The position numbers were made by a program, and so were the translations under genes. This document shows positions 19,318-58,258 of a DNA stretch of 64,000 bases, in pieces. Source of the stretch: Candidatus Velesiimonas alkalicola (GTDB lineage: Bacteria > Omnitrophota > Gorgyraeia > Velesiimonadales > Velesiimonadaceae); NCBI GenBank assembly GCA_013626165.1, contig NDHX01000006.1, forward strand, positions 2,060-66,059, read 5' to 3'. Below the pieces are notes generated by a model, which saw only the letters and a program-made list of their open reading frames with translations, made no database searches and was not told the origin of the DNA. Within the stretch, counting starts at the first letter, position 1; every line of letters begins with the position of its first letter.

Positions 19318-20360
19318 TAGAAGTATCGCATAAATTGTTTTACAACTATAGGTTAAACTAAATAAAAATAGATAATTACCGATAATATATATAAGAGGAT
19401 ATATGGAAATAAGGTTACATAAGAATGCTACTACCTTAAAGATAAGGGATGAGATAAAGAAAAGTAAATTAAGTATAAATGCATTAGCAACTAAATACAA
19501 TATAGGTTGGCATACAGCAAAAAGATGGAGGGAAAGAGAGGATATTCAGGATAGGACATCTCGTCCACACAAATTAAATATAACCTTAACTAAAGAGGAA
19601 GAAGACCTAATATTATTTGAGCGCAAACAAAAGAAATTATCTTGTGAGGATATATATTGTATCCTAAAAGATAAAATCCATAATTTATATCCTATGAAGG
19701 TATATAGATGTGTAGCAAGGAATGGGTTTGGGATAATACCAGAAGAATTTATAAAAGAAGAGAGAAAAATTAAGAAGTTCAAGAAATACACAATAGGGTA
19801 TTTGCATGTAGATACACTCTATGCGCCTAAAATAAACACGACCCAAAATCAAAGATTTTGTGTGCCCGGGCATTATATCTTCACCTGTATAGACAGAGTA
19901 TCAAAGTTAGCATATGTGATAGTAGTAAAGAATAAAAATATGAAAAATAGCAAGATATTATTAGAGAAGGTATTAAAATTTTATCCATATAAGATAAATT
20001 ATATTTTAACAGATAACGGACAAGAGTTTTGTTATAATGCCTTACCAAAGAGTAAAAAGACTAAAAAGATGCATCCATTTGTTAAAGTATGTAAGGATAA
20101 TAAAATACAGCACAGAACAATAAAATTTAAGCACCCATGGACAAATGGACAGGTAGAAGCAATAAATAAGAAAATTAAGCAAAGGGTATTGACAAAATAT
20201 ATTTTTTCTGATACATTAGATTTAGAAAATAAATTGATAGAGTTTACAGAGTATTATAACAAGGAGGCAAAATTAAAAACTTTGGGATATAGGTCTCCCA
20301 AAGAGTACTTAATTGAGAAATATAATATTCAACTAACGTAGCGTTGTAAAACAATTAAAG
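19318..20360 (+). mobile_element. IS481/IS3-like insertion sequence with 14-bp terminal inverted repeats
   Basis: Left end aattgttttacaac (19322-19335) and right-end reverse complement aattgttttacaac (20343-20358). The AT-rich content (~28% GC) carries a single DDE transposase. Confidence 0.75.
19403..20341 (+). CDS. DDE transposase (integrase-core rve domain), IS481-like
   Basis: 312 aa with an N-terminal HTH and a catalytic region with TDNGQEF and HPWTNGQVE motifs. Confidence 0.8.
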   Translation: MEIRLHKNATTLKIRDEIKKSKLSINALATKYNIGWHTAKRWREREDIQDRTSRPHKLNITLTKEEEDLILFERKQKKLSCEDIYCILKDKIHNLYPMKVYRCVARNGFGIIPEEFIKEERKIKKFKKYTIGYLHVDTLYAPKINTTQNQRFCVPGHYIFTCIDRVSKLAYVIVVKNKNMKNSKILLEKVLKFYPYKINYILTDNGQEFCYNALPKSKKTKKMHPFVKVCKDNKIQHRTIKFKHPWTNGQVEAINKKIKQRVLTKYIFSDTLDLENKLIEFTEYYNKEAKLKTLGYRSPKEYLIEKYNIQLT

Positions 20361-20488
20361 AAAAGACTAAAATCTATTCTGTTAGCAGGCAGGTAAAAAG
20401 GCAAAGAAAATTGTTTGACAGTTTAAGAAAGAAGAGTTAAAATAAAGTGGTCTTTTGAAAAAGTAATATGGGGTTTACTGAATTTACA
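20355..20488 (+). repeat. 134-bp direct repeat, copy 1, abutting the IS right end
   Basis: Near-identical to 23676-23808, with 2-3 mismatches. Confidence 0.9.
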
Positions 20489-21800: not shown

Positions 21801-23675
21801 GAGGAGAGGAGATGGCAAAGATTAAGGGAGTAAAGGCGAGGATGTGTGCTGGCTGACCACATAGGTAACACTGGACTACGGATTTTAGCAAGTTCCTTTT
21901 CAATATATTCTACGAGAAAGTTCACTGAACCCCATCAACCTTATCTATTTGCCCCCTGAATCTCACAAGCCAATTTCTTATTCATCGCTTTTCTAAAACA
22001 GAAGTCTGTCATTAAGTGGAAAAAGACAAAAGTATACCCCTGACCTGTTGTGAATTTTCCAAAAAACTTCACATTACAGATGATAGATAATAGGACAGGA
22101 TAATTGTAATTATAAGTAGCACATTGCCCCCGAAGAAGCTACTCAGGTGCCTGTTGTTCAGGCTTACCCATTGTCCCAGACAATAGTTGTAATTTCAGGT
22201 GTGGTGGTCTCTTTTCCTTAAATAGCCTGCAGTAAGAATCTTCTCAAGTCTTTAGAAAGACCATTTCCTTAGCATATTCTTCAAAGTAGTATTCTAAACA
22301 GCTGCAAGAGTCTGATCCATTAAAAGATAGCTCTGGGTCATTGTAAAAAAACAGCTTTTATTTCTTCCCCTATCTTAGAGTAATTACTGTAGTAATTTTT
22401 CCTGCCAAGAACTGACATCTTAAAACACCTTTCTGCCAGATTATTATCTATAGGTACAAAAGATGCTTTACAAAGATAGTTAATCTTTTCCAATGTTCTT
22501 TAAGACTTTCTATTGCTTTAATCTGCTCTGGATGTTCATATTTTTGCCGGCTACGTTCTTTTGTCTTTTCCAATTTCTCTACCAACTGCTCCTGATAGAT
22601 AGAAAACTTATCAGGATTATTTAGCTGTGCCAGATGTTTTTCATTGATAAGATAGAGATTGGCAATATTATTTATTCATTCCTGTACCCAATAAGTAAGA
22701 ACATAGTGTCTTCTGGATATTTATCCTGTATCTTGATAAAATCTTTTCTTATAAAAATATCCAGGTCTGAAAGTTTCACCTGGAAGACCTGCCTTTGTAA
22801 AAAAAGACTGAAAAGATACTTATTCAGAATTACCTTAACCCAAAAGCTTACATCAAATTTACCCTTCTATGTATAATCTTTGGAGAAAAGAAGAAGTTAT
22901 AATAGGATTTAGACAAGAACAGGTTTTCTTATATTTCCTGCTCTGCTTTCTTCTTAAGAAAATAGGTCTTTCTTACCACTATCTTATAGGAATCTTCTGC
23001 AGTAGATAATTCTTCTAAAGACAATCTACATCTTTTACAATATCTTTCTTCTTTGGGTAATTTACAGAACTTTTCTACTTTTGGTAAGTTTTCAGGAGTC
23101 TTTTGTCTATAATACTTGGTAACTATCCTGAGCTTCTTGTTCTCTCCTTTCTGCTTTTACTTTTTAGACAGGTTTACTATCTTAAGTAAGAACAGGCATC
23201 TTTCTTGTAGCTTTGTTTTTCTATACTTTCTATTTTTATTTTTAGAATTCTATTTTCTTTTCTAAGTTTTTGATTTTTTCTCTTAAACTTTCCTTGTAAA
23301 CCAGTTGCATCTTTTACTTCTTTTTCTTTAGTATCTTCAAAGCATCCTTACATATTAGAGGCTAAATTCTTTATCTTTACCCAGGGGAAAATCAAAAAAA
23401 GAGGGAGGGGAGTTTAATTATTCTTTCTTTCTCTATTTGCAAGAAGAGCCTTTTTTAATGCATGCTGTTTTAATTGAGCATTTTGACCAGGCCAATTTAT
23501 CTTTTCACAAATTATTTAAGAGAGTTTGGTTTGAGAAAGATGAAAGTTCTTCTTTATAATCTTTTTTATTTCTTTTATTTTCTCTTTCAGTAAATTGCCG
23601 ACCATGATATATATTTTTCATCTTACAATAAATTATCATAAAAGAAAAAGCAATGTAAGTTTTTAGAATTATTTA

Positions 23676-23808
23676 TTAAAGAAAAGACTAAAATCTATTC
23701 TGTTAGCAGGCAGTTAAAAAGGCAAGGAAAATTGTTTGACAGTTTAAGAAAGAAGAGTTAAAATAAAATGGTCTTTTGAAAAAGTAATATGGGGTTTACT
23801 GAATTTAC
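23676..23808 (+). repeat. 134-bp direct repeat, copy 2
   Basis: Matches 20355-20488. It is preceded by ORF-poor AT-rich DNA (21.85-23.67 kb) containing stop-ridden reading-frame fragments. Confidence 0.9.
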
Positions 23809-28733: not shown

Positions 28734-30095
28734 CTAAAGACAATACCCAACCAGTGTGCAATTGTGAACATCTTTGACAAGAACATTGAAAATCTGCCCC
28801 GGTATAAACCTCGTTGGATATGGCAAGCTATCCAGTGGGGTAAACCTATCAACAGGGAAAACAATATTTCTGTTCTTTCTTGTATGTCCTTTTGCCCATA
28901 TGTTAGCGTCTATAGATTTTTTGACAATTTTTTCAACAAGGACTTCCTGTTCTGTGCCTATCAATCTTCTTAAATTATATTTTGCTATAGAAGAAACAAG
29001 GTCAAGTGCTACCCTGTGCCTTGACTTTTTATCGTTTATACTTACATCATCGGAAAGATTATAGGCAGATGTTCCTTTCCTCGTAGAATATTTATACACA
29101 AATGCACCGTCAAACCTTATTTGCTTTAAAACAGAAATCGTATCTTTGAAATCTGTATCTTTTTCCGATGGAAAGCCTACAATTATATCCGTTGTTATAG
29201 AGCACTGCGGAATTATAGACTTACATTTTTCTATCAGTTTAAGATAATATTCCCTTGTATATCCTCTGTTCATAAGCGTTAATATCCTGTCTGAACCGGA
29301 CTGTAAGGGAAGATGGATATGTTCGCACACATTGGGAAGTTCAGCAATTGTTTTAAGAAGTTTTTCATCCACATCCCTTGGATGGCTTGTCAAAAACCTT
29401 ATCCTTTTTATATCAGTTTCTTTATTTATGATTTTCAAAAGTTCAGTGAAATCACATTCTTGATATTTATATGCAGACACATTCTGTCCTAAGAGTGTAA
29501 CCTCCTTTACTCCTTTATTTGTCAAATCTTTTATTTCCCGGACAATCTCTTGCACCGGACGGTTTTTTAATTTTCCTCTTGCATAAGGAACAACACAATA
29601 TGAACAAAAATTTTCGCACCCCTTTGCAATATTTACAAATGCCGATACTTTGCTGTTTACAGATATACTTGTATTATCAGGATAATTCCTTCCAACCTCA
29701 AGTATATTTTTCTCTCCGTTTATTACTCTCTGAATAATATTGCCCATTAAACCTGTATCATCAGGTCCACATGCGAAAGAAAGTCCGGGTATTTTTTCAA
29801 AAACTTCCTCCCTGAGCAACTGCACAGAACATCCTACAAGCCCAACAACCGCCCCTGGTTTCTTTGATATTACATCTTTTGCATACTCTATCGCCCTGTT
29901 TTGAGCATGCTCTCTTACGGAACAGGTATTAAATAGGACAACATCAGCATCCTCAATACCATCAGACACAACAAATCCATCTGTCAGAAGACAGGACAAA
30001 ATCATCTGACTATCCCTTTTATTCATCTGACATCCGAAGGTACGGATAAAGATTTTTTTTGGCATATTTTTATAAGTTTTTGATTCTTTTGACAT
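28734..30095 (-). CDS. miaB: tRNA-i6A37 methylthiotransferase
   Basis: 453 aa with an N-terminal MTTase domain (TFGCQMN), a radical-SAM CxxxCxxC (CENFCSYC) and a TRAM domain. Confidence 0.9.
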   Translation of the reverse strand: MSKESKTYKNMPKKIFIRTFGCQMNKRDSQMILSCLLTDGFVVSDGIEDADVVLFNTCSVREHAQNRAIEYAKDVISKKPGAVVGLVGCSVQLLREEVFEKIPGLSFACGPDDTGLMGNIIQRVINGEKNILEVGRNYPDNTSISVNSKVSAFVNIAKGCENFCSYCVVPYARGKLKNRPVQEIVREIKDLTNKGVKEVTLLGQNVSAYKYQECDFTELLKIINKETDIKRIRFLTSHPRDVDEKLLKTIAELPNVCEHIHLPLQSGSDRILTLMNRGYTREYYLKLIEKCKSIIPQCSITTDIIVGFPSEKDTDFKDTISVLKQIRFDGAFVYKYSTRKGTSAYNLSDDVSINDKKSRHRVALDLVSSIAKYNLRRLIGTEQEVLVEKIVKKSIDANIWAKGHTRKNRNIVFPVDRFTPLDSLPYPTRFIPGQIFNVLVKDVHNCTLVGYCL

Positions 30096-30219
30096 TGTAG
30101 TTTCTTTTCTGTTTCTGAAAACAAAAAATTAAAGTGGGCAAAAAGAAAAAAAGAAATTTTTTTGTGGTAACGCCCCGCCGATGGCGGGGGCGATCTTGAT
30201 GTTTTTAAAAAGCAGCCCG
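30053..30219. repeat. 167-bp direct repeat A (terminator hairpin + miaB promoter + first 14 codons of miaB)
   Basis: Identical, with one substitution and a poly-T length difference, to 37856-38021. It contains the GC hairpin cgccccgccgatggcgggggcg followed by a T-run. Confidence 0.9.
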
Positions 30220-31712
30220 GCGAGCTGTTTCTTATCAGCAAAGTCTATTTTTTCTTTGCTGTCATCGTACCCATCAAGAAAGTCTTTTACTCTGTTAATA
30301 TAGCCCTCTGAGTGTTCTCGTTCAATTTCTCTAAGTTCATATCCTGCAAAGAGTTTTTTCAAGTTTTTTTCTTCGTTTCTGAGGCTTGAATTTTTCTCGC
30401 GATAGACATCTTCGCCAAGCAAATTTTCCAGATAAGCGTCTGTAAGTCTTGACTGTTTTTCTTGGTTAATTTTCAGCTTATCTTTGAACAAACCCACGTC
30501 ATTGCGAGGTGTTGACATCCCTGATGTCAACACCGAAGCAATCTCAAGACCAGTCCCTGTCGTCCATCGGCTCTGTTTTAGGCGTTCGTTTTGGACCAAC
30601 TGAGCAACTATTTTTGTGGCCTCCGGCTCTATATCCTCTGCCTTCACTGCCCTGTTGGTACAATTTATATGGCTTGAATAAGGACCTGAACACCTATACT
30701 AACGTTTCTTCCTATTCAAGCGATGGTTTGATATGGACGATACACCTGTATACCTATGATTGCACTTAGCACAAGCGATAAGACCTGTCAAAAGATACTC
30801 TTGACTTTTTGTTCTCGGTCGCCATGTTCGTGTCTTGTTCGCCAGCAGCTTCTGAACTTCTACAAAATCTTCTCCATCTATGATAGGCTTATGCCTTCCC
30901 TGTGCAACAAGAACTTTAGAAGGATCATTTCTGATATATTTGTAATGTTTTTTGGTTTTCTGATTCTTGTCATAGTGTTTTTTATTCCAAACAATCTTAC
31001 CGGTGTAAATCTGATTCTTAAGTATGTCACAAACAAACTTGTTGTAAAATTGTTTGCCTGTCCTTGTCTTGTATCCTTTCCTATCAAGGTATGCTGCTAT
31101 GTCGTGTGTGCTCTTGCCGGAAATATACATCGTATATATCAGCTTAACGATATTCGTTTCTCTTTCTTCAACCTCTAATAGCTTCTTGGTTTTGTTATAA
31201 GCATAGCCGAATGGCGCAAATCGTGCGCCTTGCCAGTTGCCTTGTTGAACGCCTTTCATCATGCCAGGGAATACCCTTTCAGCAATCCGGTTTCTTTCAA
31301 ACTCGGCAAACGAGCCAAGCTGCTGAAACATCAGTGTCCCTGCTGATGTCGTTGTGTCAAAAGGTTCTGTTGCAGATTTGAAGCCAACGCCATAGGAAGA
31401 TAGCTCATCCACCAGCATAAGCAAGTCTTTAAGGTTGCGACTAAAGCGATCGATCTTATGGACCAACACAAGCTCAAACCTCTTTGCCTTCGCATCAGCA
31501 AGCAACTGTTGTAAAGCCGGGCGACGCGTGGAATATGCACTTATGCCATCATCGCAATACACCTTGAAAACTTCATATCCTTCACGATTAGCAAAGGATT
31601 CAAGGTATTCTTTTTGTACTTCTAAAGAATAACCTTCTTTGGCTTGGTCTTCAGTAGATACTCGTGTATAAATTGCTATTCTTAGCTTTTCATTCATTTT
31701 TAATATCCACAA
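30129..31712 (-). pseudogene. Large serine recombinase (integrase), split by a frameshift into 337-aa and 172-aa ORFs
   Basis: The N-terminal resolvase catalytic domain (IYTRVSTEDQ, Ser nucleophile) is followed by a recombinase domain and a zinc ribbon (CAKCNHRY). The coiled-coil C-terminal part continues in another frame from 30647. The last ~30 codons run into repeat A. Confidence 0.75.
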
Positions 31713-31733: not shown

Positions 31734-32318
31734 TTATTTTAATCCCTTTATTAAACTTTCTATCGTATCAACAAAATCTATCGCATTTTTATAAACCTTT
31801 TCAGCATCTTTTTGCGCAATAACTGCATCTGCCTTATACTGTGCTGTATTTCTTTTGGATTTCGTGGCCCACATTCTATTAACATATTTCTCATCAAGCT
31901 TTTTTGCAGATTTTATCTTCTCGATGTCCTCTGATTCTATGGTCTTTTCTTTGAAAACAAAATGATATTCTAAACCCTCAATAAGGCTTTCATGGCTTTG
32001 GGCTTTTATCCCTATTGCGGCCAACGCAGCTGTTGCCGCATGAAACATTGCATAATATCCACAGCTTATAGTCCAATCATATCCAATATAATCGGCACTT
32101 ACTTTTAGTCTTTTCTTGCTCTCGTTATCTTCCGAAACCTCCATAAGTAAAGAACCTGTCTCGATATTATGCCTTGCTTTATCAACATGATATTTTACCA
32201 GCGCTGTAATTGTGGGGTCTACTTTTAAATCGCCATTATCAAAATAACCTTTTACTTTTATTTTTAGCATTTCTTTCTTCAAATCACTCATTTTATTACC
32301 TCCAATATTAGTTCCCAA
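31734..32318 (-). CDS. HEPN-domain protein (partner of the upstream nucleotidyltransferase)
   Basis: 194 aa with an all-helical HEPN-like pattern and a KRNTAQY segment. It overlaps the upstream MNT gene. Confidence 0.6.
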   Translation of the reverse strand: MGTNIGGNKMSDLKKEMLKIKVKGYFDNGDLKVDPTITALVKYHVDKARHNIETGSLLMEVSEDNESKKRLKVSADYIGYDWTISCGYYAMFHAATAALAAIGIKAQSHESLIEGLEYHFVFKEKTIESEDIEKIKSAKKLDEKYVNRMWATKSKRNTAQYKADAVIAQKDAEKVYKNAIDFVDTIESLIKGLK

Positions 32319-32911
32319 AATTTCTCTGCACCAAACAATATTACTTTATTTTTTAAGATCTCCTTGGCTACATTATGCTCCTTATCTTTTAACATTGTTA
32401 ATAAATTTGTTGGCTCAGAAACCAAAGGGTTTATTTCGACACCAAAACCTTTTGACAAGGCGACACATTCCATATCAATAATTTCATCATATTTCTTTTT
32501 TGAAGGGATAAGGATAAAAAGATCGATATCGCTTTTTTTAAAGTCGGTCCCTTTAGCCAAAGATCCAAATAGAACAACAGAAAGTAAGTTAAAATCTGTT
32601 TTCTTAGGCAATACCGAAAGAAGCTTTTCAACTACGAAGAAAATTTTATCCCTCTTCTTTAAAAAATCTTCGGCTATCTGATTCGATATTTTAACAAAAC
32701 TCGTTTTGACTTCTGGATTCTTGTAGTTAGGCCTGCAATACTTGCGGTTCGAACGCTGGTCGACAATTATAATATCCTTCTCTTTTAATTCTTCGACCTG
32801 CCTGTATACATAACTATAAGAAATATTTGTTTTCGTTGCTAACTCATTTATTGTAAACTGGGCATATACATCATCATAGAATAGCCTTATTATTTTATCT
32901 TTCATGTTCAA
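32288..32911 (-). CDS. Winged-HTH + minimal nucleotidyltransferase (MNT) protein
   Basis: 207 aa with an N-terminal wHTH and an NTase motif LFGSLAKG...DIDLFIL (GS...DxD). Confidence 0.7.
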   Translation of the reverse strand: MNMKDKIIRLFYDDVYAQFTINELATKTNISYSYVYRQVEELKEKDIIIVDQRSNRKYCRPNYKNPEVKTSFVKISNQIAEDFLKKRDKIFFVVEKLLSVLPKKTDFNLLSVVLFGSLAKGTDFKKSDIDLFILIPSKKKYDEIIDMECVALSKGFGVEINPLVSEPTNLLTMLKDKEHNVAKEILKNKVILFGAEKFWELILEVIK

Positions 32912-33042
32912 CCTCCATTATCACTTGTGGTGATAATATTATCACCAACGCTGATATATGTCAAGCTAAATTTTGAAGAGTGAAATTTTGAAGAGGGCTG
33001 GGAAATATGCGCACGCCCGTTTTGGGTGGGGAATTTCCTTTC

Positions 33043-33503
33043 CGGCTGCTTTTTAGCAGCGGCTAGGGAGCTGATGCAGTCCCGCCGCAGGCGGGGCAAA
33101 AACATCAAAATCGCCCACAAAAAGCTCTTTTCTTTTGAATTTTTTGCCCCCTTTAATTTTTTATTTTTTGAGGAAAAACAAAAATGCCAAACCAAGAACC
33201 TAAAAAGAGTTACAAATTTTTTGCCTCCAAAGTCTTTATCCGGACTTTCGGCTGGCCTTATGCTTCGGCTTTACAATATACTTTATTTGTTCTTTAAGAT
33301 TCAATGAACTTTAGGCACCGCCTGCTTAGGCAGGCTCCCGGTGTGGTGTTTGCACCGTTCAGCTTCGCTGTCGCTCAGCTTCACTCCACGCTCGCTTGGA
33401 CGCTCGCTAAAGTGGTAATGCAATAGTCCGATTCGGCTTTGTGTTGGACGCATTTTGGGTGGCGGCAAAATGCGCCCAACACCCTGCGTCCTCAACCTCG
33501 CAA
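33043..33503. repeat. Inverted copy (B) of the ~450-bp unit that is also present at 37584-38021
   Basis: It holds a diverged reverse complement of the 167-bp miaB-promoter repeat (33043-33200), then cttcggctttacaatatactttatttgttctttaagattcaatgaac, then a GC-rich ~190-bp segment (33315-33503) nearly identical to the reverse complement of 37584-37772. Confidence 0.85.
33315..33503 (+). ncRNA. Candidate structured ncRNA, copy 1 (unknown class), GC-rich with nested stems
   Basis: ~60% GC in a ~35% GC context. Multiple perfect stems (CACCG-CCUGC-UUAG-GCAGG-..-CGGUG; GCAUUUUG/CAAAAUGC inside GUUGG/CCAAC). It is duplicated exactly, and the only ORF is a duplicated composition artefact. Confidence 0.4.
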
Positions 33504-33594
33504 AAACTAAATCCGTTTTCCTTTTTTATTGCGGCCGCCGCCTGAACCGCCGTTTAGAAGAATTTTTAAAGTTTAACATATATGGGACCCTCCC

Positions 33595-34059
33595 TCAAAA
33601 TTTAAATTGAGCCGGAGGAGAATCTTTTTTGATAATCTCTTTAATTAAATCAACAAACTTTTCAGCCATATTCAAGGCATTGCTGGCTTCTGTCTTTGAA
33701 ATAGATATATCAACATCGTATGTAAATATGTTGCGCTTCTTCCTCATCTCGTCAAAACGAGCTACGATGATTTCAAATTCTTTTCCTAAGAAATGCGACA
33801 TAAATTCCACAACGGTTTTGTGCTGATAGCCGTCTGTAGGACGAAAACCTTTTAGGAGCATAAATGCTCTTCCCGCATGCAACATTGCTAAATATGCGAC
33901 TGTATAAGCAATACCTTCATCGATATCCAAATTAGCTTTTGATGTTTTTAAATCTTTAAATGAACGCGAAATAAGCTTTTCGACTGCACGGTAATTGCAT
34001 TTCTGTCTCTTTAATAGCCCTTTATTTAGGTATTCTTCAATAAATTTTTCAAAAGTCAT
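33595..34059 (-). CDS. HEPN-domain protein
   Basis: 154 aa with the R-x4-6-H-like motif region RKKRNIFTYD and a helical bundle. It overlaps the MNT gene. Confidence 0.65.
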   Translation of the reverse strand: MTFEKFIEEYLNKGLLKRQKCNYRAVEKLISRSFKDLKTSKANLDIDEGIAYTVAYLAMLHAGRAFMLLKGFRPTDGYQHKTVVEFMSHFLGKEFEIIVARFDEMRKKRNIFTYDVDISISKTEASNALNMAEKFVDLIKEIIKKDSPPAQFKF

Positions 34060-34621
34060 TTTTATCTCCTACTAAAAATATTTTCGAATCCTCTAAAAGG
34101 TCTGATATGAAGGGATCCTTTTCTCTCTTCTTCTTTATAAAATCTCTCTTCGAATATAAGCTATAATTTATTTCTCTTTTTAGAACTTTTTCTAATTTTC
34201 CTATTCCTGTTACTAATTTATCTTCGTCTACTTTGCCTATTATAAACAAATCAATGTCGCTTTTAGCGTTCTCTTCATTTTTGGCGAACGAACCATAAAT
34301 AAAAGCTGCTTCAACACCTTTTATCTTTTCAAGGATATCTTTTAACAACCCTTTTATGCCGATTGTTTTAAACACCATGCTTTTCATCTCTTCAAATAGC
34401 GGATAAGACTTGTTGAGAAAGAAATAAACGAGATTCCCTTTTCTGGATGAGGCAAAAATGCCAGCTTCTTCCAGATGAAGCAATTCCTTGCGAATCATAC
34501 TTACAGGGATATCGAGAATACGCTCAAGCTCTCTCAGGTAATATTCGCTCTGTGGATTTGTGTAAAATAGCCTAAACAGCGCCTTTCGTGTTTTAGATTT
34601 GAAAACGTTTGTTATATCCAT
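34049..34621 (-). CDS. HTH + minimal nucleotidyltransferase (MNT) protein
   Basis: 190 aa with an NTase motif YGSFAKNE...DIDLFII and an N-terminal HTH. Confidence 0.7.
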   Translation of the reverse strand: MDITNVFKSKTRKALFRLFYTNPQSEYYLRELERILDIPVSMIRKELLHLEEAGIFASSRKGNLVYFFLNKSYPLFEEMKSMVFKTIGIKGLLKDILEKIKGVEAAFIYGSFAKNEENAKSDIDLFIIGKVDEDKLVTGIGKLEKVLKREINYSLYSKRDFIKKKREKDPFISDLLEDSKIFLVGDKNDF

Positions 34622-34737
34622 CTCTTGTAATCCTTTCGTATTACAATTGTAATACTTTTATATAACAATGTCAAACTAAAATTTCACCGTTTTCCTCATT
34701 TATGCTGGTCAAGCAGCATGTATTATAGAAATGCGAT

Positions 34738-36030
34738 TTATATATTTAAAACCTCTCCATCGGTTAGAATCCTGACATTTTTGAAAAGATTAGGATAACT
34801 GTTCGGGTCAAAAGTATGAATCGGAATTAGTATTCTTGGCTTCATTGCTGATGTAAAGGCTTTTAGATCCTCTGGCTTGGCATGCCCGCTTGTATGAATA
34901 TATTCCAGAGTCAGTCTCTTGCTTTTACAAAACGCCCTAAATCCTATGGAAAGATATCCATCCCACATAGAATAAGCTATTGTGGCACCTGCTACATCAA
35001 TGATCTTTTTTAGTATCAAAGGGAAAACAGAATTATCGCGTGCGAGCATAAGAATCCTATTTTTATTTTTGCTAATTTCAGGCATTTCAATCTTTCTTTT
35101 GTTGTAAGCATAGAGCAGGTTTTTATGGCCTGCCTGAGCAAGCGCCTTCGCGTGTGCATCGAGAAATTTAACTCTCACATTTTTCCAATTAAACTGAGGA
35201 ATTTTCCCAGAGACTTGCTTGAGTTTATCCAGAATAAAGGCGGTATAAATATCAATAACAAAGGTTGAATCTGTTTTGAGGCACGCCCTATACGCCGACA
35301 CTATCCGGTCAATATTTTGCGATGAGGCAAATAGAAAGGTTATATTTCTTCTCTCTGATATAATTTCTTCTAGCCGCCTTTCAACGTCTTCCTCAGTTTT
35401 ATACTGGGCATCCTCTCTGCCAAGAGCCGAACCCTCCATAAGCAGACAGTCTATATTTTGAGGTGGTCTCTTGACTATTTGATTAAATAATATTGCTTTT
35501 CTCCCATGGGCCCTGAAATCTCCTGAATAAAATAGCCTCTTGCCTTCTGTCTCAATTAGGAATGCAAGCGCATCAAAGGCAGAATGGTCAACCAGAAAAG
35601 GCGTAACATTAAAATCGCCTATGTTCAACTGCTTTTTATTACTAATCACCTTTGTATTTAGCTTGCCAACTTTGGTGGGAACAAAAATATTTGAAACTTC
35701 AATAAGAAGCTCGGCGCCCTTACTTAAATAAATCGGTATCTCTGGATTTACGTACTGAAGGAAGCCGTAATGATCAAGGTGGGAATGAGAAATCAAGATT
35801 CCATCAATGCCTTTTTTCTCATCCTTAAAAAGCCCTTTTATATCGGGAAGGATCTTCTGCTCTTTAAGCTCTTGAAGGGACTTACCTTTAAGCTGTTTTA
35901 CTTCGAACGGCTGATGGTCACGAGAAACCAAAGGTATGCCAAAATCGACTAGGATTCTATTATTGACTGTCTTTAACTCAACACAACTTCCGCCAATCTC
36001 ATGAGTACCACGATGGATGATTATTTGCAT
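34738..36030 (-). CDS. Metallo-beta-lactamase fold nuclease of the beta-CASP type (RNase J/CPSF/SNM1-like)
   Basis: 430 aa with HxHxDH (SHSHLDHYG), downstream His/Asp motifs (VDHSAF, YSGDFR), and C-terminal TSGHA/IPIHT beta-CASP-like motifs. Confidence 0.7.
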   Translation of the reverse strand: MQIIIHRGTHEIGGSCVELKTVNNRILVDFGIPLVSRDHQPFEVKQLKGKSLQELKEQKILPDIKGLFKDEKKGIDGILISHSHLDHYGFLQYVNPEIPIYLSKGAELLIEVSNIFVPTKVGKLNTKVISNKKQLNIGDFNVTPFLVDHSAFDALAFLIETEGKRLFYSGDFRAHGRKAILFNQIVKRPPQNIDCLLMEGSALGREDAQYKTEEDVERRLEEIISERRNITFLFASSQNIDRIVSAYRACLKTDSTFVIDIYTAFILDKLKQVSGKIPQFNWKNVRVKFLDAHAKALAQAGHKNLLYAYNKRKIEMPEISKNKNRILMLARDNSVFPLILKKIIDVAGATIAYSMWDGYLSIGFRAFCKSKRLTLEYIHTSGHAKPEDLKAFTSAMKPRILIPIHTFDPNSYPNLFKNVRILTDGEVLNI

Positions 36031-36896
36031 TGCTTAATCAAATTCTCCAATTTTATCGACGACACACTACCTATTGGATAATAAGTAATGGCTCTCTCGA
36101 TTTTTTCTTTAAATAAATCCTTAAACCTTCCTTTCAACTGATCGCGGTCAAATCCAAATATTATCAAAGGAACTGTAGGGCATATCTTCTCCGGTTCAGG
36201 TAAGGATATCTGGAATAAATCATTAACTATCTTCGTATAATTGTTATATGCCGCGATGATTTGGCCCTCTTTATCTTTGATTTGGTCAGTATATCTTCTT
36301 ATCTGTTCCACTACTTTTATGTTCTCAACCTTTTCTGCCCATATCTCGCTGTTTGAAAAGTGTTTTACCTCACAGAAGATTAATCTATTCTTTTCTTTTT
36401 CAAATAAGAGTATATCGATTCTATCCTGCAACCTATCTTCTTCTATCGCCTCAAATGAAACTTCGATATCCAAAACCACAACGCTCGAATTTTTCGTTTT
36501 TGAACTCGCGAACGAATGATTTTCATATATTTTAGAAACTCCTTGAGCTTCAACTCCTGAATATAAAGAACAATTTTCTTTTATCCTTTCATAGCCGTCG
36601 GTAAAACTTTGTATTTGTTTCAGATTCCCAAGCATTAGCTCGGTAATATACGCTTCGGGATATTCTTTATATGCCGAAGCATACTTAACGTGCGTTTTAA
36701 ATCCTTCTTTGTCATATGAGAATAATCTGCCACCATAATGATAAAAATCTATTACTTCATTTCGTATTGCCGGAAAAACTTCGCCATTATCCTTAATATC
36801 CGGCAACAATTGTTTATATAAAGGCTCCTCTATCAACTTTTTCTTCAATTCTTCATTCATTGTCCGCTTAAACTTCCACTTCTCTTCCTTGCTCAT
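36021..36896 (-). CDS. Hypothetical protein with a possible PD-(D/E)xK nuclease core
   Basis: 291 aa. The central VVLDIEVSF...DRIDILLFEKEKNRLIFCEVKH resembles a D...D/E-x-K restriction-endonuclease-fold motif. It overlaps the MBL gene by 10 nt and the TPR gene by 4 nt, so the three are translationally coupled. Confidence 0.35.
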   Translation of the reverse strand: MSKEEKWKFKRTMNEELKKKLIEEPLYKQLLPDIKDNGEVFPAIRNEVIDFYHYGGRLFSYDKEGFKTHVKYASAYKEYPEAYITELMLGNLKQIQSFTDGYERIKENCSLYSGVEAQGVSKIYENHSFASSKTKNSSVVVLDIEVSFEAIEEDRLQDRIDILLFEKEKNRLIFCEVKHFSNSEIWAEKVENIKVVEQIRRYTDQIKDKEGQIIAAYNNYTKIVNDLFQISLPEPEKICPTVPLIIFGFDRDQLKGRFKDLFKEKIERAITYYPIGSVSSIKLENLIKQCK

Positions 36897-37410
36897 GTTA
36901 ACCTCTCTGGTTTAATTAGCCTCTTCATAATGTCATCCACGCATCGCAGGGCATCTTTATCATTTGGACAAAGCTCAAGTCCTTTATCAAAAGAAAGTAA
37001 TGCGTCCCAATATCTGCCTTTCTTTTTTAACGCCATGCCCCTGTTAAACCATATGCAGACATTGCGTTGCGCTATTTTAAGCGCTTCCTCAAAACACTCC
37101 ATTGATTCTTGTTCTCTACTCATCCTTAATAAACACGCCCCTTTATTTTCTAGGGCATCAATATTTTTTGGATTAATCTCCAGGGCTTTATTATAGCACT
37201 TTAACTCTTCAGTATTCTTATCAAGAAGAAAAAAGCATATCCCTTACGAAACCACGCCACGTCATCTGATGGATTTAGTTCTATGGCGCGATCATAACAA
37301 GCAACGGCATCCTCGTACATTTCTGCCTTACAGTAAATCTCTGCTGATTCATGCCAGTTAACAGCTTCTTTCATTATTTCTCCAAAAATAAAAAATCCTC
37401 CGCCGGTCAT
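36893..37410 (-). pseudogene. TPR-repeat protein, apparently split into two ORFs (37410-37201 and 37123-36893)
   Basis: Both fragments show TPR consensus (W-LG-Y-A-F-A-P). A ~75-bp gap with a frame change lies between them. Confidence 0.5.
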
Positions 37411-37583
37411 AACTTTACCAACGAAGGTTTTACTTTTTTAACGTCCGGGATTTCCCCCCTTCAAACACGGAACAAATATCTAATTTTAACTTTATTATAT
37501 CAAGTTTATTTACTTTGTCAACGATTTTCAGGACCATTTGACTTACCCAGCAGACACACGAGAATACAGTGTAAAATACTACA

Positions 37584-37772
37584 TTGCGAGGTTGAGGACG
37601 CAGGGTGTTGGGCGCATTTTGCCGCCACCCAAAATGCGTCCAACACAAAGCCGAATCGGACTATTGCATTACCACTTTAGCGAGCGTCCAAGCGAGCGTG
37701 GAGTGAAGCTGAGCGACAGCGAAGCTGAACGGTGCAAACACCACACCGGGAGCCTGCCTAAGCAGGCGGTGC
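37584..37772 (-). ncRNA. Candidate structured ncRNA, copy 2 (reverse complement of copy 1)
   Basis: Near-identical to the reverse complement of 33315-33503. It is positioned ~90 bp downstream (minus sense) of the duplicated miaB promoter copy. Confidence 0.4.
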
Positions 37773-37855
37773 CTAAAGTTCATTGAATCTTAAAGAACAA
37801 ATAAAGTATATTGTAAAGCCGAAGCATAAGGCCATCCGAAAGTTCGAATGTAGAC

Positions 37856-38021
37856 TTTTTTTGGCATATTTTTATAAGTTTTTGATTCTTTTGACATTGT
37901 AGTTTCTTTTCTGTTTCTGAAAACAAAAAATTAAAGGGGGCAAAAAGAAAAAAAGAAATTTTTTTGTGGTAACGCCCCGCCGATGGCGGGGGCGATCTTG
38001 ATGTTTTTAAAAAGCAGCCCG
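37856..38021. repeat. 167-bp direct repeat C (copy of the miaB terminator/promoter/first 14 codons)
   Basis: Matches 30053-30219, including atgtcaaaagaatcaaaaacttataaaaatatgccaaaaaaa (MSKESKTYKNMPKK). Confidence 0.9.
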
Positions 38022-38177
38022 CACATCTCTTTCTTGGTAGCAAAATCTATTTTTTCCTAAACGTGCGGGTTTAATTAATCCTTTTCTCTCCCAGATCCCA
38101 AGTGTAGCTGGGCAAACTTTTAAAGACTTGGAGACTATACCGATAGTATAAACTGGTTCTTTATATCCATATTCCAT
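38007..38177 (-). CDS. Small MerR-family HTH protein (56 aa), candidate excisionase/recombination directionality factor
   Basis: MEYGYKEPVYTIGIVSKSLKVCPATLGIWERKGLIKPARLGKNRFCYQERDVRAAF has a MerR/Xis-type HTH. It is below the 60-aa cutoff of the ORF track, and its last codons lie inside repeat C. Confidence 0.45.
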   Translation of the reverse strand: MEYGYKEPVYTIGIVSKSLKVCPATLGIWERKGLIKPARLGKNRFCYQERDVRAAF

Positions 38178-38254
38178 CCTAAACCTCCTCTTTTTCTCAA
38201 TATAGAGGTTTTTATATCATATATAAATACTATTGTCAAATGGATTGCAAGTAA

Positions 38255-39604: not shown

Positions 39605-40303
39605 TTATTCCTTTACGTTTTCTTTAAAAGAAGCGATATTAGGTTTAATTTTAATTGGCTTTCCTATCTTCTCTACAACAGCTTCCTGAGTCTTCAAACC
39701 ATTGCCTGTTACGCATACAACAATAGATTCATCTTTAGGTATCTTGCCTTGCTCAATGAGCTTCTTTGTTGCACCTAAAGTCACACCCCCTGCTGTCTCA
39801 GCAAATATTCCCTCTGTTTCTGCTAGAAGTTTTATTGCCTCAACAATTTCATCATCAGTCACGTCTTCAGCATAACCGCCAGACTCCTTTACAGTTCCAA
39901 CTGCATATACACCATCTGCTGGATTCCCAATAGCTAAAGATTTAGCGATTGTGTTCGGCTTAACTGGTCTTATGATATCGGAATCTTCTTTAACGGCAGT
40001 AACTATAGGACAACAGCCTGTGGCTTGAGCCGCATGAATTTCTGTATCAACTTTGTCAATCAATCCTATGGTCTTAAATTCTTTTAACCCTTTCCAGATT
40101 TTGGTGATTAAAGAACCGCCGGCACAGGGAACTATAAAGTGTTGACTAACGATACATTAAGTATACAACTTAATGTATCGTTAGTCAACACATAATCAAC
40201 CTCTAAGGGGCCAAAGCAGTACTCGCATACATAGAGAGGCTTTTTTGGATATGTTCTTTGGCATTCTCTGCACTTTAATCCTTTAACATAACTTATATTT
40301 TCA
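39605..40303 (-). pseudogene. thrC: Threonine synthase (zinc-ribbon-containing type) remnant with an internal deletion and stop
   Basis: The N-terminal zinc ribbon LKCRECQRTYPKKPLYVCEYCFGPLEVDY (40197-40300) runs in-frame into the 53-bp palindrome and a TAG stop. The C-terminal part (QHFIVPCAGGSLITKIWKGL...VVCVTGNGLKTQ, 39605-40138) is in another frame. About 200 aa, including the PLP-lysine region, are missing. No ATG is in frame at the 5' end. Confidence 0.7.
40139..40191. repeat. 53-bp near-perfect palindrome (24-bp arms, 5-nt centre), copy 1
   Basis: gtgttgactaacgatacattaagt-ataca-acttaatgtatcgttagtcaacac. A second copy lies at 58141-58191. Confidence 0.9.
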
Positions 40304-54681: not shown

Positions 54682-55710
54682 TTAATGCGGATGGCCGTGG
54701 GCACCGAAGTCAATAGCCGCTTTCTGGAGTTCAGCTTTCAGGTGAAAACCACCTTTGGTCACTACCTGTTCACCAAGTTTAAGCCCGGCAATCACTTCTG
54801 AAAACTCCTCCCCTGTCGTTCCTAATTTGATTTCCCTCAGTTTGTATCTGTTGTCCCCTATTGGTATGAAAACAATTTCTTTGTTTTCCCATCTTTGTAT
54901 TGCTGAATTGGCAATAGATACCATTTTGTGAGGAGCCGTGTAAATTATATCTCCTGTAACAAACTTACCGAGTTTCAGCGTGTGGTCATAGTTATCAATA
55001 TCTACCCTTATTTTTATAGTTCTTGTTCTCCTGTCAACCCGTGGAGAGATGAATGTTATTTCACCGGGGTAAATCTTGCCGGGATATGCACGGGTTTTCA
55101 CTTTGACTTTTTGTCCCAATTTTACAATGGCTATATCTTTTTCATAGACATCAAAACTTGCTTTCATCGTAGATATATCGGCTATTGTGAAAAGAGAAGT
55201 AAGCATGTCCACTTCTTCTCCCTCAGAAATACGTTGTCCTATAATTAGTGTCCCACTGGGAGATTTTATCTCTTCAATTTTCCCGTCTTTACTGCCTTTG
55301 ACAAGTGCCAGTAAAGTTCCTTTTTCCACATTATCCCCCAAACCAACTTTAACTTCAACTATCTCACCCGGAATATTGGAAGTGACATGGAATAATTTCT
55401 CGCTATCCTGGGCTATCTCTCCGGTAATTCGTAGACTTTTCTTTATATGCCGCATAGCAACCTTATCTGTTTTTAATCCTATCATCTTCTTGCCCCGAGT
55501 AGATATTTGGACAACACCTTCCTCCTCGTGCTCGTGATGAACTCCTTCATCGTGCCTGTGTGGATGTCCCTCTTCAAAACACCAGCAATGGCAGCCCTCT
55601 CCATGTTTATGCGGATGCTCCTCTTCCCTGAATCCTCTCCACACTAATATTCCCACAATTAAACAAACTATACCTACAATTAACAGCCACGGCCAATAAG
55701 ACCTTTTCAT
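54682..55710 (-). CDS. Periplasmic adaptor (membrane fusion protein, CzcB/CusB-like) with a His/Cys-rich N-terminal metal-binding segment
   Basis: 342 aa with a TM anchor, then HPHKHGEGCHCWCFEEGHPHRHDEGVHHEHEEEG, then lipoyl/beta-barrel MFP domains. Confidence 0.85.
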   Translation of the reverse strand: MKRSYWPWLLIVGIVCLIVGILVWRGFREEEHPHKHGEGCHCWCFEEGHPHRHDEGVHHEHEEEGVVQISTRGKKMIGLKTDKVAMRHIKKSLRITGEIAQDSEKLFHVTSNIPGEIVEVKVGLGDNVEKGTLLALVKGSKDGKIEEIKSPSGTLIIGQRISEGEEVDMLTSLFTIADISTMKASFDVYEKDIAIVKLGQKVKVKTRAYPGKIYPGEITFISPRVDRRTRTIKIRVDIDNYDHTLKLGKFVTGDIIYTAPHKMVSIANSAIQRWENKEIVFIPIGDNRYKLREIKLGTTGEEFSEVIAGLKLGEQVVTKGGFHLKAELQKAAIDFGAHGHPH

Positions 55711-55766
55711 AGTTCACCTCCTGTTGTTTTTTCTAAAATCGCCAACTTTGTTTGATGGTCAAGTAT
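55604..55766. repeat. 163-bp direct repeat (adaptor-gene 5' end + upstream region); second copy at 56777-56939
   Basis: Near-identical copies. A third partial copy at 55921-56017 lies inside the coding region of the 321-aa paralogue. Confidence 0.9.
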
Positions 55767-55917
55767 AGACATAGTGTACCGTCCCATAAGTCCCTTTACA
55801 TTTGTCATTGCGAACAAAGTGAAGCAATCTTGTTTTCTGAACCAAAAAGTGAGATTGCTTCGTTGCATCGCCCCTCGCAATGACAGCCAAATGTCAAGAA
55901 ACGTTAGGGACACTACA

Positions 55918-58115: not shown

Positions 58116-58140
58116 CCTAGAGCGAATTGGTTAGTAAATT

Positions 58141-58191
58141 GTTAGATAACGATACATTAAGTATACAACTTAATGTATCGTTAGTCAACAC
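58141..58191. repeat. Second copy of the 53-bp palindrome (left arm slightly degenerate)
   Basis: ...aacgatacattaagtatacaacttaatgtatcgttagtcaacac, with a ~46-nt identity to 40146-40191. It lies between the OMP gene start and pstS. Confidence 0.9.
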
Positions 58192-58258
58192 ATATTCTTT
58201 CATATTATTTTTGACAGTATCTAGCGGGGAGAGGCAAATGCCTCTCCCTTTGTTTGCT

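Follow-up and report, generated by a model that had tools for sequence, protein, structure and literature searches.

Inverted repeats around a HEPN/MNT and nuclease gene block beside miaB resemble junction modules of large serine recombinase elements

Results

Gene content of the locus

The window analyzed here is the whole 64-kb stretch of the Candidatus Velesiimonas alkalicola contig. Upstream of miaB, it contains a large serine recombinase (LSR) gene with its own cargo (U1) and a second cargo block (U2), the latter enclosed by two inverted sequence units, copies B and C (Table 1). Both MNT/HEPN pairs of the window match the A/B components of the PADLOC candidate defence system PDC-M05, a HEPN-MNT toxin-antitoxin type, with best E-values of 2.5e-50 and 8e-18 for pair 2 and 1.4e-17 and 1.9e-9 for pair 1. 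These genes are cargo and stand outside the repeat mechanism. An intact relative of the U1 cassette is found in locus L125, and the cargo varies among relatives, where it includes SIR2-HerA, DUF4238, an ion-channel-like protein, and others.

The recombinase gene encodes Resolvase (E = 3.6e-41) and Recombinase (E = 2.1e-22) domains on 30699–31712 by Pfam and a zinc-ribbon C-terminus, which its homologues share as PF13408 (Zn_ribbon_recom). Its best NCBIfam matches are CcrB, CcrC, and XisF, but all scores are far under the cut-offs, so it belongs to none of these families. The gene is not intact: homologues are 550–580 aa long with W at the position of the in-frame TAG, which here splits the zinc ribbon. 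The same split calls (332 + 172 aa) are present in assemblies BBPE and BBPD, and the BBPF contig lists the 332-aa call only.

Table 1 Features of the miaB locus (window coordinates)
Feature	Position	Strand	Description
miaB, target gene	28734–30095	-	Pfam UPF0004 + Radical_SAM; first ~20 codons would be supplied by the element
Copy A, resident LSR tail	30031–30254	-	Overlaps functional miaB start; breakpoint TTCGGATG at 30038–30031
LSR pseudogene	30129–31712	-	One in-frame TAG, 30699–30701 (...KKR*YRC...); 2-nt deletion in tail, early frame end
Cargo U1 of LSR cassette	31734–32911	-	Second MNT 32288–32911 + HEPN 31734–32318; Pfam, PADLOC
U1 predicted own promoter	32964–32936	-	Promoter scan
Copy B, tail part	33026–33254	+	Inverted LSR tail/miaB-5′ module, other LSR lineage; ends in TTCGGCTG (33247–33254)
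G element, copy B	33255–33503	+	Inverted relative to C; 100% identical to copy C
Remnant of module following G	33504–33574	+	T-run plus GCGGCCGCCGCC; L004 1–71 is a 91% inverted copy
Cargo block U2	33595–37410	-	Pfam, PADLOC, NCBIfam
U2: HEPN	33595–34059	-	Pfam; PADLOC candidate system PDC-M05 A/B
U2: MNT	34049–34621	-	Pfam; PADLOC candidate system PDC-M05 A/B
U2: beta-CASP/RNase J-like MBL nuclease	34738–36030	-	Pfam; NCBIfam RNase J family, below cut-off
U2: 291-aa protein	36021–36896	-	No assigned family (Pfam)
U2: two TPR fragments	37201–37410, 36893–37123	-	Pfam
Predicted U2 operon promoter, sigma-70-type	37494–37521	-	TTGACA-16-TATAAT with TG extension, 12/12 consensus
G element, copy C	37584–37832	-	Half-site GCC-N12-TTTACAA, AT-rich linker, structured GC-rich core
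Copy C breakpoint	37840–37833	-	TTCGGATG; end of tail part
Copy C, tail part	37833–38090	-	Orphan LSR 3′ end (encodes ...EKIDFATKKEMCGLLFKNIKIAPAIGG...) over surrogate miaB 5′ end
MerR-like HTH ORF, 56 aa	38007–38177	-	Truncated, fused frame-independently to orphan LSR tail

Anatomy of the inverted repeat

A repeat search of the window placed the two arms at 33204–33503 (B) and 37584–37883 (C), 300 nt each and 94% complementary at a spacing of 4080 nt, with a weaker 56-nt extension (33129–33184 and 37903–37958, 77%). A three-way alignment divided each arm into two zones. Zone 1, running from the TG of TTCGGNTG to ...CCTCGCAA, is 100% identical over ~250 nt (B 33253–33503, C 37834–37584). Zone 2, the tail part of ~200 nt (B ~33041–33252, C ~37835–38060), is 70% identical, with 103/147 positions in the best local alignment. 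The two zones are present at both ends of the 33.5–37.6 kb block. The tail part occurs once more in direct orientation, as copy A, which lies at the real miaB start (30031–30254) and is 93% identical to C 37833–38056. Two probes of 30–38 nt from the GC-rich part each matched the B and C sites and nowhere else, with 0/100 hits in shuffled controls. The repeat search and the alignment thus bear out the preliminary description in three respects: the inverted repeats around the 4-kb HEPN/MNT and nuclease segment are real, each arm consists of a tail (then called a promoter), a ~70-nt AT-rich linker and a ~190-nt GC-rich element, and B and C are convergent.

Contigs of BBPE and BBPD both include the segment, copy B, and the LSR–miaB side, and BBPE also spans copy C; in the BBPF scaffold, the upstream genes are joined to the segment across N gaps. 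On this basis, an assembly artefact is unlikely.

The tail module is the 3′ end of a recombinase gene

Alignment with full-length LSRs identified the repeat that had been described as a miaB promoter as the last ~55–75 codons of an LSR gene. The tail extends over the 5′ end of miaB in a different reading frame, as far as a conserved breakpoint, TTCGGNTG, and its translation is the conserved LSR C-terminus ...LLFKNIKIAPAIGGALPPKRISFFLFAPFNFLFSETEKKLQCQKNQK... The tail of copy C, when translated, matches the C-termini of full-length LSRs; its sequence has 91% identity with the tails of the L010 and L008 LSRs. Tail_B shares only 70% identity with tails A and C, against 99.4% with the L028 LSR tail and 95.6% with both inverted-repeat copies of L024. 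The MerR-like ORF at copy C covers positions 1–44 of the 69 in Pfam MerR_1, and most related loci have a MerR-like gene of 60 aa upstream of the LSR; the ORF would be what is left of an older element that has lost its central portion (MerR′–deleted LSR–tail). On the miaB side, several loci have extra tail copies in which the first 21 amino acids are 71–95% identical, whereas MiaB is otherwise only ~40–45% identical.

A miaB-type promoter had been assigned to each arm, with C driving the operon in the sense direction and B reading antisense into the HEPN/MNT pair. The arms are LSR 3′ coding tails, and a promoter scan found only a weak sigma-70-like match (TTTTCA-16-TACAAT, 9/12) in copies A and C and predicted no promoter on the inward strand of copy B. 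Copy C is unlikely to drive the operon because the structured G element, terminator-ending in related copies, intervenes and the operon has its own consensus promoter at 37521–37494. The latter lies downstream of G, so no promoter in copy C is required.

The G element combines a half-site with a structured core

The part of each arm beyond the breakpoint, termed G, begins with a putative P′ half-site of the form TTCGGNTG/RMC-N12-TNTACA, found in >40 loci; no obvious dyad symmetry was seen in the half-sites. The first ~22 nt of G are common to distant lineages that have no G core (L055). Copy C matches the covariance model of G at 108 bits. Across 36 distinct sequences in alignment A8, 93% of the cells are paired and 10/17 pairs carry compensatory changes on both sides. 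The covariation score of 0.272 compares with 0.121 in shuffles, none of which reached it (0/500), and ≤0.072 in a slid control; A8 was fitted to the covariance model, and the same signal was obtained on the MAFFT alignment A7. The excess of compensatory base pairs over controls points to a structured RNA or single-stranded DNA, the helices being strand-symmetric except for a minority of G–U pairs. Related G copies end in an intrinsic terminator, and the core of ~100 nt is probably transcribed in the tail-to-G direction. Rfam 15 gave no match to G at E ≤ 1 in 32900–38200; across the window and seven related loci, no match reached the gathering score, and those in L089 were at chance level only. 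The conserved module that follows G is absent at copy C of the window, where another assembly has a 204-nt version, and L002 begins as a chimera of both alleles of this module.

The junction modules recur at miaB in several phyla

About 70 of 80 GTDB loci, from several phyla, have an LSR homologue immediately upstream of miaB, as do L005–L007. The LSRs are 85–91% identical between genomes whose MiaB proteins are only 40–48% identical. About 45 of the miaB-adjacent LSR loci carry a near-perfect inverted tail copy upstream of the recombinase gene; these tail′/tail repeats measure 146–218 bp and share 98–100% identity at most loci, among them that of the complete WOR-1 genome L055. Copies A, B, and C and >40 loci have the breakpoint in common, as befits a site-specific junction. 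In L032 and L033, which are true attL junctions, G is joined at TTCGGNTG to a short native start of miaB that has a TATAAT of its own. The C..B..A layout of the window recurs in L035. In two further lineages (L130 versus L122, and L126 versus L134/L102), one and the same tail/G unit (549 and 582 bp) is found once on the MerR side and once on the LSR side, and the sequences part after G. Tail/G junctions are attached to the LSR in 10/39 metagenome loci. In loci such as L022 and L089, the 2–5 kb to the left of G contained neither a second G nor an attL, and the genes that follow are host-like.

Both orientations of the recombinase cassette occur in relatives

Between L105 and L022, identity is 100% over the LSR end, the inverted repeat, G, and a 7.4-kb flank, and the cassette is linked in opposite ways; a second opposite-linkage pair, L130 and L016, is 99.96% identical. 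Because a perfect 177-bp inverted repeat can mislead short-read assemblers, this evidence, drawn from assemblies of relatives only, may include mis-joins. As the LSR cassette (tail′...LSR tail) is the part seen in both orientations in relatives, the likeliest invertible part of the window would be the B–A interval (30.0–33.25 kb) and not B–C. The repeats around the cassette are not near-identical in the window, however, with tail_B and tail_A at 70%. The 33.5–37.6 kb segment was not seen in both orientations: contigs of the three assemblies and of Logan run DRR093103 have one arrangement or end in the repeat, a weak negative result. The earlier suggestion that inverted repeats beside a serine recombinase mark an invertible segment thus holds at the level of the family and is not supported for 33.5–37.6 kb. 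In this genome, the array is most likely frozen, given the recombinase pseudogene, the dissimilarity of tail_B and tail_A, and the single arrangement in three assemblies.

Discussion

A probable mosaic of attP-type junctions

It is likely, in our judgment, that the arms are tail/G attP-type junction modules of LSR elements whose integration target is the start of miaB, preserved here as a decayed, frozen mosaic. The left half, or tail, would comprise the last ~55 LSR codons, a replacement upstream region, probably with a weak promoter, and the first ~20 miaB codons; because the tail supplies the miaB start, miaB would remain functional after insertion. The right half, G, would provide the element-side recombinase half-site followed by the ~100-nt structured core. 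Recombination, probably catalyzed by the LSR, would occur within TTCGGNTG. The window may accordingly be described as a nested, decayed array at a hot spot, with the putative order MerR′–deleted LSR–tail_C/G (forward), cargo U2, G/tail_B (inverted), MNT1–HEPN1–LSR (pseudogene), and tail_A/miaB. Copy C would be the left, attL-like junction and copy A the right, attR-like junction, equivalent to attB, while copy B would be the inverted internal unit that members of the family typically have, here derived from a different LSR lineage. In intact relatives, the inverted tail′ and the LSR's own tail form the near-perfect 146–218-bp repeat around a MerR–cargo–LSR cassette that is found in either orientation, and a second arc (U2) may also be bounded by two inverted tail/G units, as in the window. 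LSRs normally do not pair attP-like with attP-like sites, so textbook LSR chemistry does not cover the origin of the inverted B module. The complete identity of G_B and G_C beside tails at 70% calls for an extra assumption: either the crossover was the site of a recent exchange, or gene conversion was confined to G.

Ongoing gene conversion or flip-flop recombination would also fit ~250 bp of perfect repeat beside diverged sequence, as would be the case if 33.5–37.6 kb were an active phase-variable segment, flipped by the LSR or by RecA acting on the 250-bp repeats and read in sense and antisense from facing promoters. Two inverted G arms surround a cargo arc in L035, L122/L130, and L126/L134 as well, and A and C have the weak promoter-like match. 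Nevertheless, we find active inversion improbable: the LSR is a pseudogene, both arms are of the attP type that LSRs do not normally recombine with each other, the contigs of three assemblies agree on one arrangement, B lacks a predicted inward promoter, and a structured G, terminator-bearing in relatives, separates tail from cargo. A flip would neither turn the operon off nor change promoter output, since the 12/12 promoter lies within the segment and flips along with it.

There is very little to recommend G as an autonomous small mobile element (MITE- or ribozyme-like) that inserted twice, independently of the LSR, into the FGC codons of miaB-5′ copies. G is a compact, conserved, structured unit whose B/C identity begins precisely at the conserved TTCGGNTG, and in L032 and L033 it sits in a native miaB 5′ end. 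Yet every G locus with enough flank has an LSR of this family on the contig, with G abutting a tail or tail copy (loci having been retrieved via the LSR or via the tail/G junction), its first ~22 nt look like a conserved protein-binding half-site shared with lineages without the core, and neither the rest of the 64-kb window nor related loci totalling about 1 Mb yielded further copies. Metagenome assemblies often mishandle repeats, the L003 scaffold is interrupted by N gaps at copy C, and the join at the start of L002 is chimeric; an inverted segmental duplication or assembly artefact devoid of mechanistic meaning is nonetheless scarcely credible when BBPE and BBPD contigs cross copy B, BBPE copy C also, and the modular layout recurs with the same boundaries in dozens of unrelated genomes and metagenomes.

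Comparison with known systems

The attP-type junction reading places the miaB family near LSR elements such as SCCmec (CcrAB/CcrC at rlmH), the Anabaena fdxN element (XisF), the B. subtilis skin element (SpoIVCA), and phage A118 at comK. Common to them are the Resolvase, Recombinase, and zinc-ribbon domains, a target that is one conserved protein-coding gene, a small partner gene with an HTH, and a short core at which hybrid junctions form. In the miaB family, however, the recombinase ORF continues past the attachment site into the target gene and its tail also serves as the substitute miaB 5′ end, attP-like and attB-like sites have identical left halves, and most copies have a 146–218-bp perfect inverted tail duplicate.

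Genomic islands specific for dusA likewise enter a tRNA-modification gene at its 5′ end, which they rebuild from their own sequence, and the study that describes them notes how few genes of this kind are known as targets, citing the MiaB-like rimO in Polaromonas (Farrugia et al. 2015, PMC4482086). The likeness to the miaB elements lies in this 5′-end restoration. The dusA islands differ in using tyrosine recombinases and in their target gene and host phyla, and neither an inverted att duplicate nor a linked structured RNA is reported for them.

The two orientations seen among miaB relatives recall serine-invertase switches. As in Hin/hix, Gin/gix, and engineered Bxb1 integrase-plus-RDF switches, inverted sites bound a segment that holds or adjoins the recombinase gene. 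Hin and Gin are small invertases with a Fis enhancer and 26-bp repeats, whereas the miaB family has a large serine recombinase and repeats of ~180 bp. In the miaB family, the two sites have one half in common and differ in the other (G versus miaB), and the miaB 5′ end is intact in both cassette states.

The yeast 2-micron plasmid is a circle with two large inverted repeats between two unique arcs. Its recombinase is of the tyrosine and not the serine class, and no replication function was identified in the miaB family. The layout is otherwise similar: U1 (MerR–cargo–LSR) and U2 (cargo) are parted by two inverted units of 250–580 bp, with the recombinase in one arc. The loci L122 and L130, a pair without a miaB body, may represent a free circular form of the element.

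The repeat arms carry the end of a recombinase gene

A repeat search of the window confirmed the inverted repeat around the second cargo segment; a weaker 56-nt stretch extends its arms, copies B and C. We defined the zones of the repeat by a three-way alignment of B, C and the true miaB upstream region. B and C are identical from the TG of a conserved TTCGGNTG through ...CCTCGCAA and share ~70% identity (103/147) beyond TTCGGNTG on the tail side. A third copy, A, lies in direct orientation at the real miaB start. Probes taken from the GC-rich part of the repeat matched at B and C only, and shuffles gave no match. Contigs of two other assemblies, BBPE and BBPD, cross copy B; copy C is crossed by a BBPE contig too and is covered across N gaps by a BBPF scaffold.

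The gene upstream of miaB encodes a large serine recombinase (LSR) and contains a single in-frame TAG, at a position where its homologues have tryptophan. A database search returned hundreds of homologues of 550–580 aa and 60–90% identity, and an alignment of their C-termini placed the end of the full-length proteins at ...LLFKNIKIAPAIGGALPPKRISFFLFAPFNFLFSETEKKLQCQKNQKLIKICQKKSTS..., an ending that copies A, B and C all encode in one frame. The repeat therefore comprises the last ~55–75 codons of the LSR gene, hereafter the tail. The first ~20 miaB codons are tail DNA read in a different frame from the LSR, and in full-length homologues the LSR stop codon falls past the breakpoint, within the miaB codons for GCQMN. 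A 2-nt deletion in the tail of the window LSR is also found in copy C, so it either arose before A and C split or was copied from one to the other.

The preliminary description had read the tail part of the arms as a promoter repeat (167 bp in C), with C driving the cargo operon and B expected to transcribe antisense into the HEPN/MNT pair. The arms are instead attachment-site modules, and the supposed promoter repeat is made of LSR tail codons, in which A and C hold only a weak sigma-70-like match (TTTTCA-16-TACAAT, 9/12). The operon has a 12/12 promoter of its own, independent of the arms, and a promoter scan predicted no sigma-70-like promoter on the inward strand of copy B.

Features of the window and of related loci (window positions unless a locus is named)
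Feature	Position	Detail
Inverted repeat arms, B / C	33204-33503 / 37584-37883	300 nt, 94% complementary
Identical zone, B / C	33253-33503 / 37834-37584	100%
Copy A	30031-30254	93% identical to C
TAG in LSR gene	30699-30701	Resolvase and Recombinase domains; homologues ..KKRWYRC..
Deletion in LSR tail	30150-30175	2 nt, within A-run; GTTACCACAAAAAAATTTC here and in copy C
Operon promoter	37521-37494	12/12
Module junction at copy C	37583/37584	204-nt G-downstream module absent; L004 1-204, L002 1-192 (partial)
Palindrome, MNT1 promoter region	32917-32964	Perfect, GTGGTGATAATATTATCACCAC; overlaps -10 element
291-aa protein gene	36021-36896	Overlaps start of beta-CASP nuclease gene
152-aa ORF	39605-40063	Matches profile positions 184-295 of 295 of PALP (pyridoxal-phosphate enzyme) domain
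Palindrome	40134-40196	29-nt arms, 93%, 5-nt loop; upstream of sulfur-carrier gene cluster
Copy of this palindrome	58135-58194	60 nt, 95%; 18 kb off
Direct repeat pair	55573-55770 / 56746-56943	198 nt, 95%
Direct repeat pair	20354-20487 / 23675-23808	134 nt, 98%
Imperfect palindrome	L009 78-565	491 bp, 84%; upstream of LSR
LSR cassette between MiaB-family genes	L025 5645-6954, 11471-11955	Inverted orientation; tail repeat 218 bp, 93%
GGCGGCGG block	L017 ~2400-2700; L022 ~7000-7250; L089 7440-7620	Also in L088 and L007

A recombinase family aimed at the miaB start

An LSR lies directly upstream of miaB in ~70 of the 80 loci drawn from GTDB genomes, as well as in three loci found via homologous proteins. 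The hosts include Omnitrophota, Elusimicrobiota, Margulisiibacteriota, WOR-1/Saganbacteria and Auribacterota. Across these genomes the LSR can be 85–91% identical where MiaB is merely 40–48% identical, and MiaB residues 1–21 go along with the LSR tail; the unit is therefore horizontally transferred, its own miaB start included. True left junctions are preserved in two related loci (L032 and L033). At both, TTCGGNTG joins G, the part of the repeat adjoining the tail, to a short native start of miaB that has a TATAAT of its own (MKVYIKTFG...); after G come a MerR-like gene, the LSR and then miaB. The MerR-like gene, which encodes a 60-aa helix-turn-helix protein, accompanies the LSR almost everywhere; because the protein gives weak excisionase-type matches, it is a candidate directionality factor.

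In locus L009, two divergent copies of the MerR-like gene sit within an imperfect palindrome upstream of the LSR. In L025 the cassette lies between two different MiaB-family genes, each of them linked to one copy of the tail repeat, so that a second methylthiotransferase gene stands where G would be.

Two G probes and the tail-G junction had no matches in IMG/VR, and hence there is no sign of phage carriage. Full-text literature searches found no report of a miaB-targeting LSR or of an LSR family at miaB, and neither the family nor the G motif appears to have been described. The nearest published analogue is the group of islands at the dusA 5' end, which carry tyrosine integrases (PMC4482086).

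G contains a structured core

G starts with a conserved motif, TTCGGNTG followed by RMC-N12-TNTACA, found in more than 40 loci, a distant complete WOR-1 genome (L055) among them; its sequence fits a recombinase half-site. Next comes an AT-rich linker, holding the stops of the run-on LSR and miaB frames, and then a GC-rich core. No Rfam family matched G in the window, the region or seven related loci. We built a covariance model for the core on three hairpins, and it matched in 39 places. Among 36 distinct sequences, 93% of cells are paired and 10 of 17 pairs have compensatory changes. The covariation score is 0.272; shuffles gave 0.121, with 0/500 reaching the observed score, and sliding the partners yielded no more than 0.072. 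Of the three hairpins, two are solid (P1 and P3) and one is weak (P2), and in some copies P1 is enlarged by an insert whose CCUGAACG loop is conserved. We conclude that G is a structured element, and its core is a new RNA candidate with good covariation support and no Rfam entry.

RNAalifold on MAFFT alignments also offered a long-range alternative to P1, composed of invariant G-U pairs. We set it aside, since no covariation stands behind it and locus L076 keeps a local P1 with a different sequence.

G is probably an RNA transcribed from the tail side. Several copies are closed by an intrinsic terminator in the tail-to-G direction, beyond which lie more conserved non-coding modules. Single-sequence folding is ambiguous (z = -0.7 on the tail-to-G strand, -3.4 on the opposite strand), and the strand assignment does not rest on it. 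The simplest guess at a role is that G would insulate the cargo from the orphaned miaB promoter region or terminate transcription between them.

One module downstream of G, absent at copy C in the window, is present at that copy in L004 and, in part, in L002. This insertion/deletion polymorphism falls between G and the cargo promoter. The longer allele adds 71 nt (91% identity) to the inverted repeat and holds a perfect hairpin, CCCCGCCCGCAACTT..AGTTGCGGGCGGGG; L002 appears to begin as a chimera of the two alleles. Beyond G lies a second block of conserved non-coding sequence, in which a T-run with GGCGGCGG precedes GGCAAGCGCACAAAGTCCGYTGYGGAAAT..GGACGACTGCGATTGC; Rfam gave no match for this block, which may be a further structured element.

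Inverted tails and probable cassette inversion in relatives

A second, inverted copy of the tail lies 0.85–8 kb upstream of the LSR in ~45 of 75 loci. Its inner boundary is constant (KNIK..., beside a GC hairpin), and it is mostly 98–100% identical to the LSR's own tail across 146–218 bp. Its outer end adjoins G or, in distant lineages, another arm of the P' type, the half-site motif that begins G. The typical unit thus reads: G and a tail copy, both inverted, then the MerR-like gene, cargo, LSR and tail in the direction of miaB, to which the tail is joined. Metagenomes contributed tail-G junctions at 39 loci, ~27 of the inverted-tail type and 10 in which the LSR body runs directly into G.

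Loci L105 and L022 are 100% identical in the LSR end, the repeat, G and 7.4 kb of flanking chromosome and have opposite cassette linkage, as do L130 and L016. This comparison suggests that the LSR cassette inverts in relatives, with the reservation that mis-assembly is possible across a perfect 177-bp repeat. The reciprocal junction of the alternative state, with the MerR-side tail joined to miaB, did not turn up in the related loci, a collection retrieved by routes that would miss it. Inversion would be the work of the LSR or of homologous recombination, and the exact crossover dinucleotide is a putative assignment. In two further lineages a tail-G unit, of 549 and 582 bp, is attached once on the MerR side and once on the LSR side, and the sequence after G differs between attachments (L130 versus L122; L126 versus L134/L102). 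Two inverted tail-G units can therefore bound a second arc, as in the window, whose C..B..A layout recurs in L035. Within 2–5 kb to the left of G in loci such as L022 and L089, we found neither a second G nor a native junction, and host-like genes follow.

Two other models were rejected. Simple tandem integration predicts direct repeats only and leaves the inverted B module unaccounted for, and antiparallel synapsis at a palindromic core predicts tail-tail and G-miaB junctions, which were not seen. The earlier suggestion that the segment between the arms is invertible holds as far as the architecture is recombinase-related, but in this family inversion is most likely for the neighbouring LSR cassette. 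Contigs retrieved through three proteins from three assemblies and one Logan run all have the one arrangement or end in the repeat, with no alternative orientation among them. The resident LSR is inactivated, copy B has no accompanying MerR-like gene, and its tail is too diverged from that of copy A for the usual repeat pair. The window copy looks frozen.

The window as a mosaic with defence-type cargo

In the direction of miaB, the order is NIL, then a truncated MerR-like gene fused to the last ~75 LSR codons (tail_C), joined to G. The operon promoter, TPR fragments, the 291-aa protein, the beta-CASP nuclease, MNT2 and HEPN2 follow, up to G and tail_B, both inverted. Beyond these lie a separate promoter with MNT1 and HEPN1, the LSR pseudogene, and tail_A joined to miaB. 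In sequence, tail_C is like those of the resident lineage (91–93%). Tail_B matches the tail of L028 at 99.4% identity and, at 95.6%, that of L024, a lineage whose LSR is just ~60% identical to the resident one. At least three generations of elements thus contribute to this mosaic locus. The identity of the two G copies outward from the breakpoint fits either an exchange at the breakpoint or a gene conversion confined to G.

In PADLOC, each of the two MNT/HEPN pairs matches the candidate system PDC-M05, and the metallo-beta-lactamase (MBL) protein is a beta-CASP, RNase J-like nuclease. Other cargo in relatives includes SIR2-HerA, DUF4238 and an ion-channel-like protein. With cargo so varied and of defence type (HEPN/MNT, SIR2-HerA, nucleases), the start of miaB may be a hot spot for defence islands in these lineages. 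Pfam, NCBIfam and PADLOC gave no match for the 291-aa protein, which may act with the nuclease as an uncharacterised partner. The palindrome in the MNT1 promoter region looks like a putative autoregulatory operator for the wHTH-MNT protein.

Reading the apparent duplicated promoter as the footprint of a recombinase attachment system matters for correct annotation and, in Omnitrophota and related candidate phyla, helps to tell mobile from host DNA. The family is a source of many closely related LSRs for which genomes reveal the target, the miaB 5' end, as well as both half-sites, the information needed for making integrases into genome-engineering tools. The LSR reaction is known as one-way; the shared half-site and the inverted duplicate suggest a route by which an LSR could perform reversible inversion, a possible natural switch. 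More broadly, and tentatively, since we give it somewhat less than even credence, these loci could form a so far undescribed class of LSR elements, spread across phyla and specialised for the miaB 5' end. The recombinase ORF itself would cross the att site, the element-side and host-side sites would have an identical half of ~180 bp in common, inverted att pairs would serve as a reversible inversion or cassette-exchange platform for defence cargo, and recombination would switch the new structured RNA G between partners.

Self-comparison of the window also returned the two direct repeat pairs in the table. The 152-aa ORF, which matches just the C-terminal third of its domain and stands beside ThiS/ThiF/NIL genes, may be a truncated or frameshifted gene. 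The palindrome upstream of the sulfur-carrier cluster, together with its distant copy, may represent either an operator or a small repeat element.
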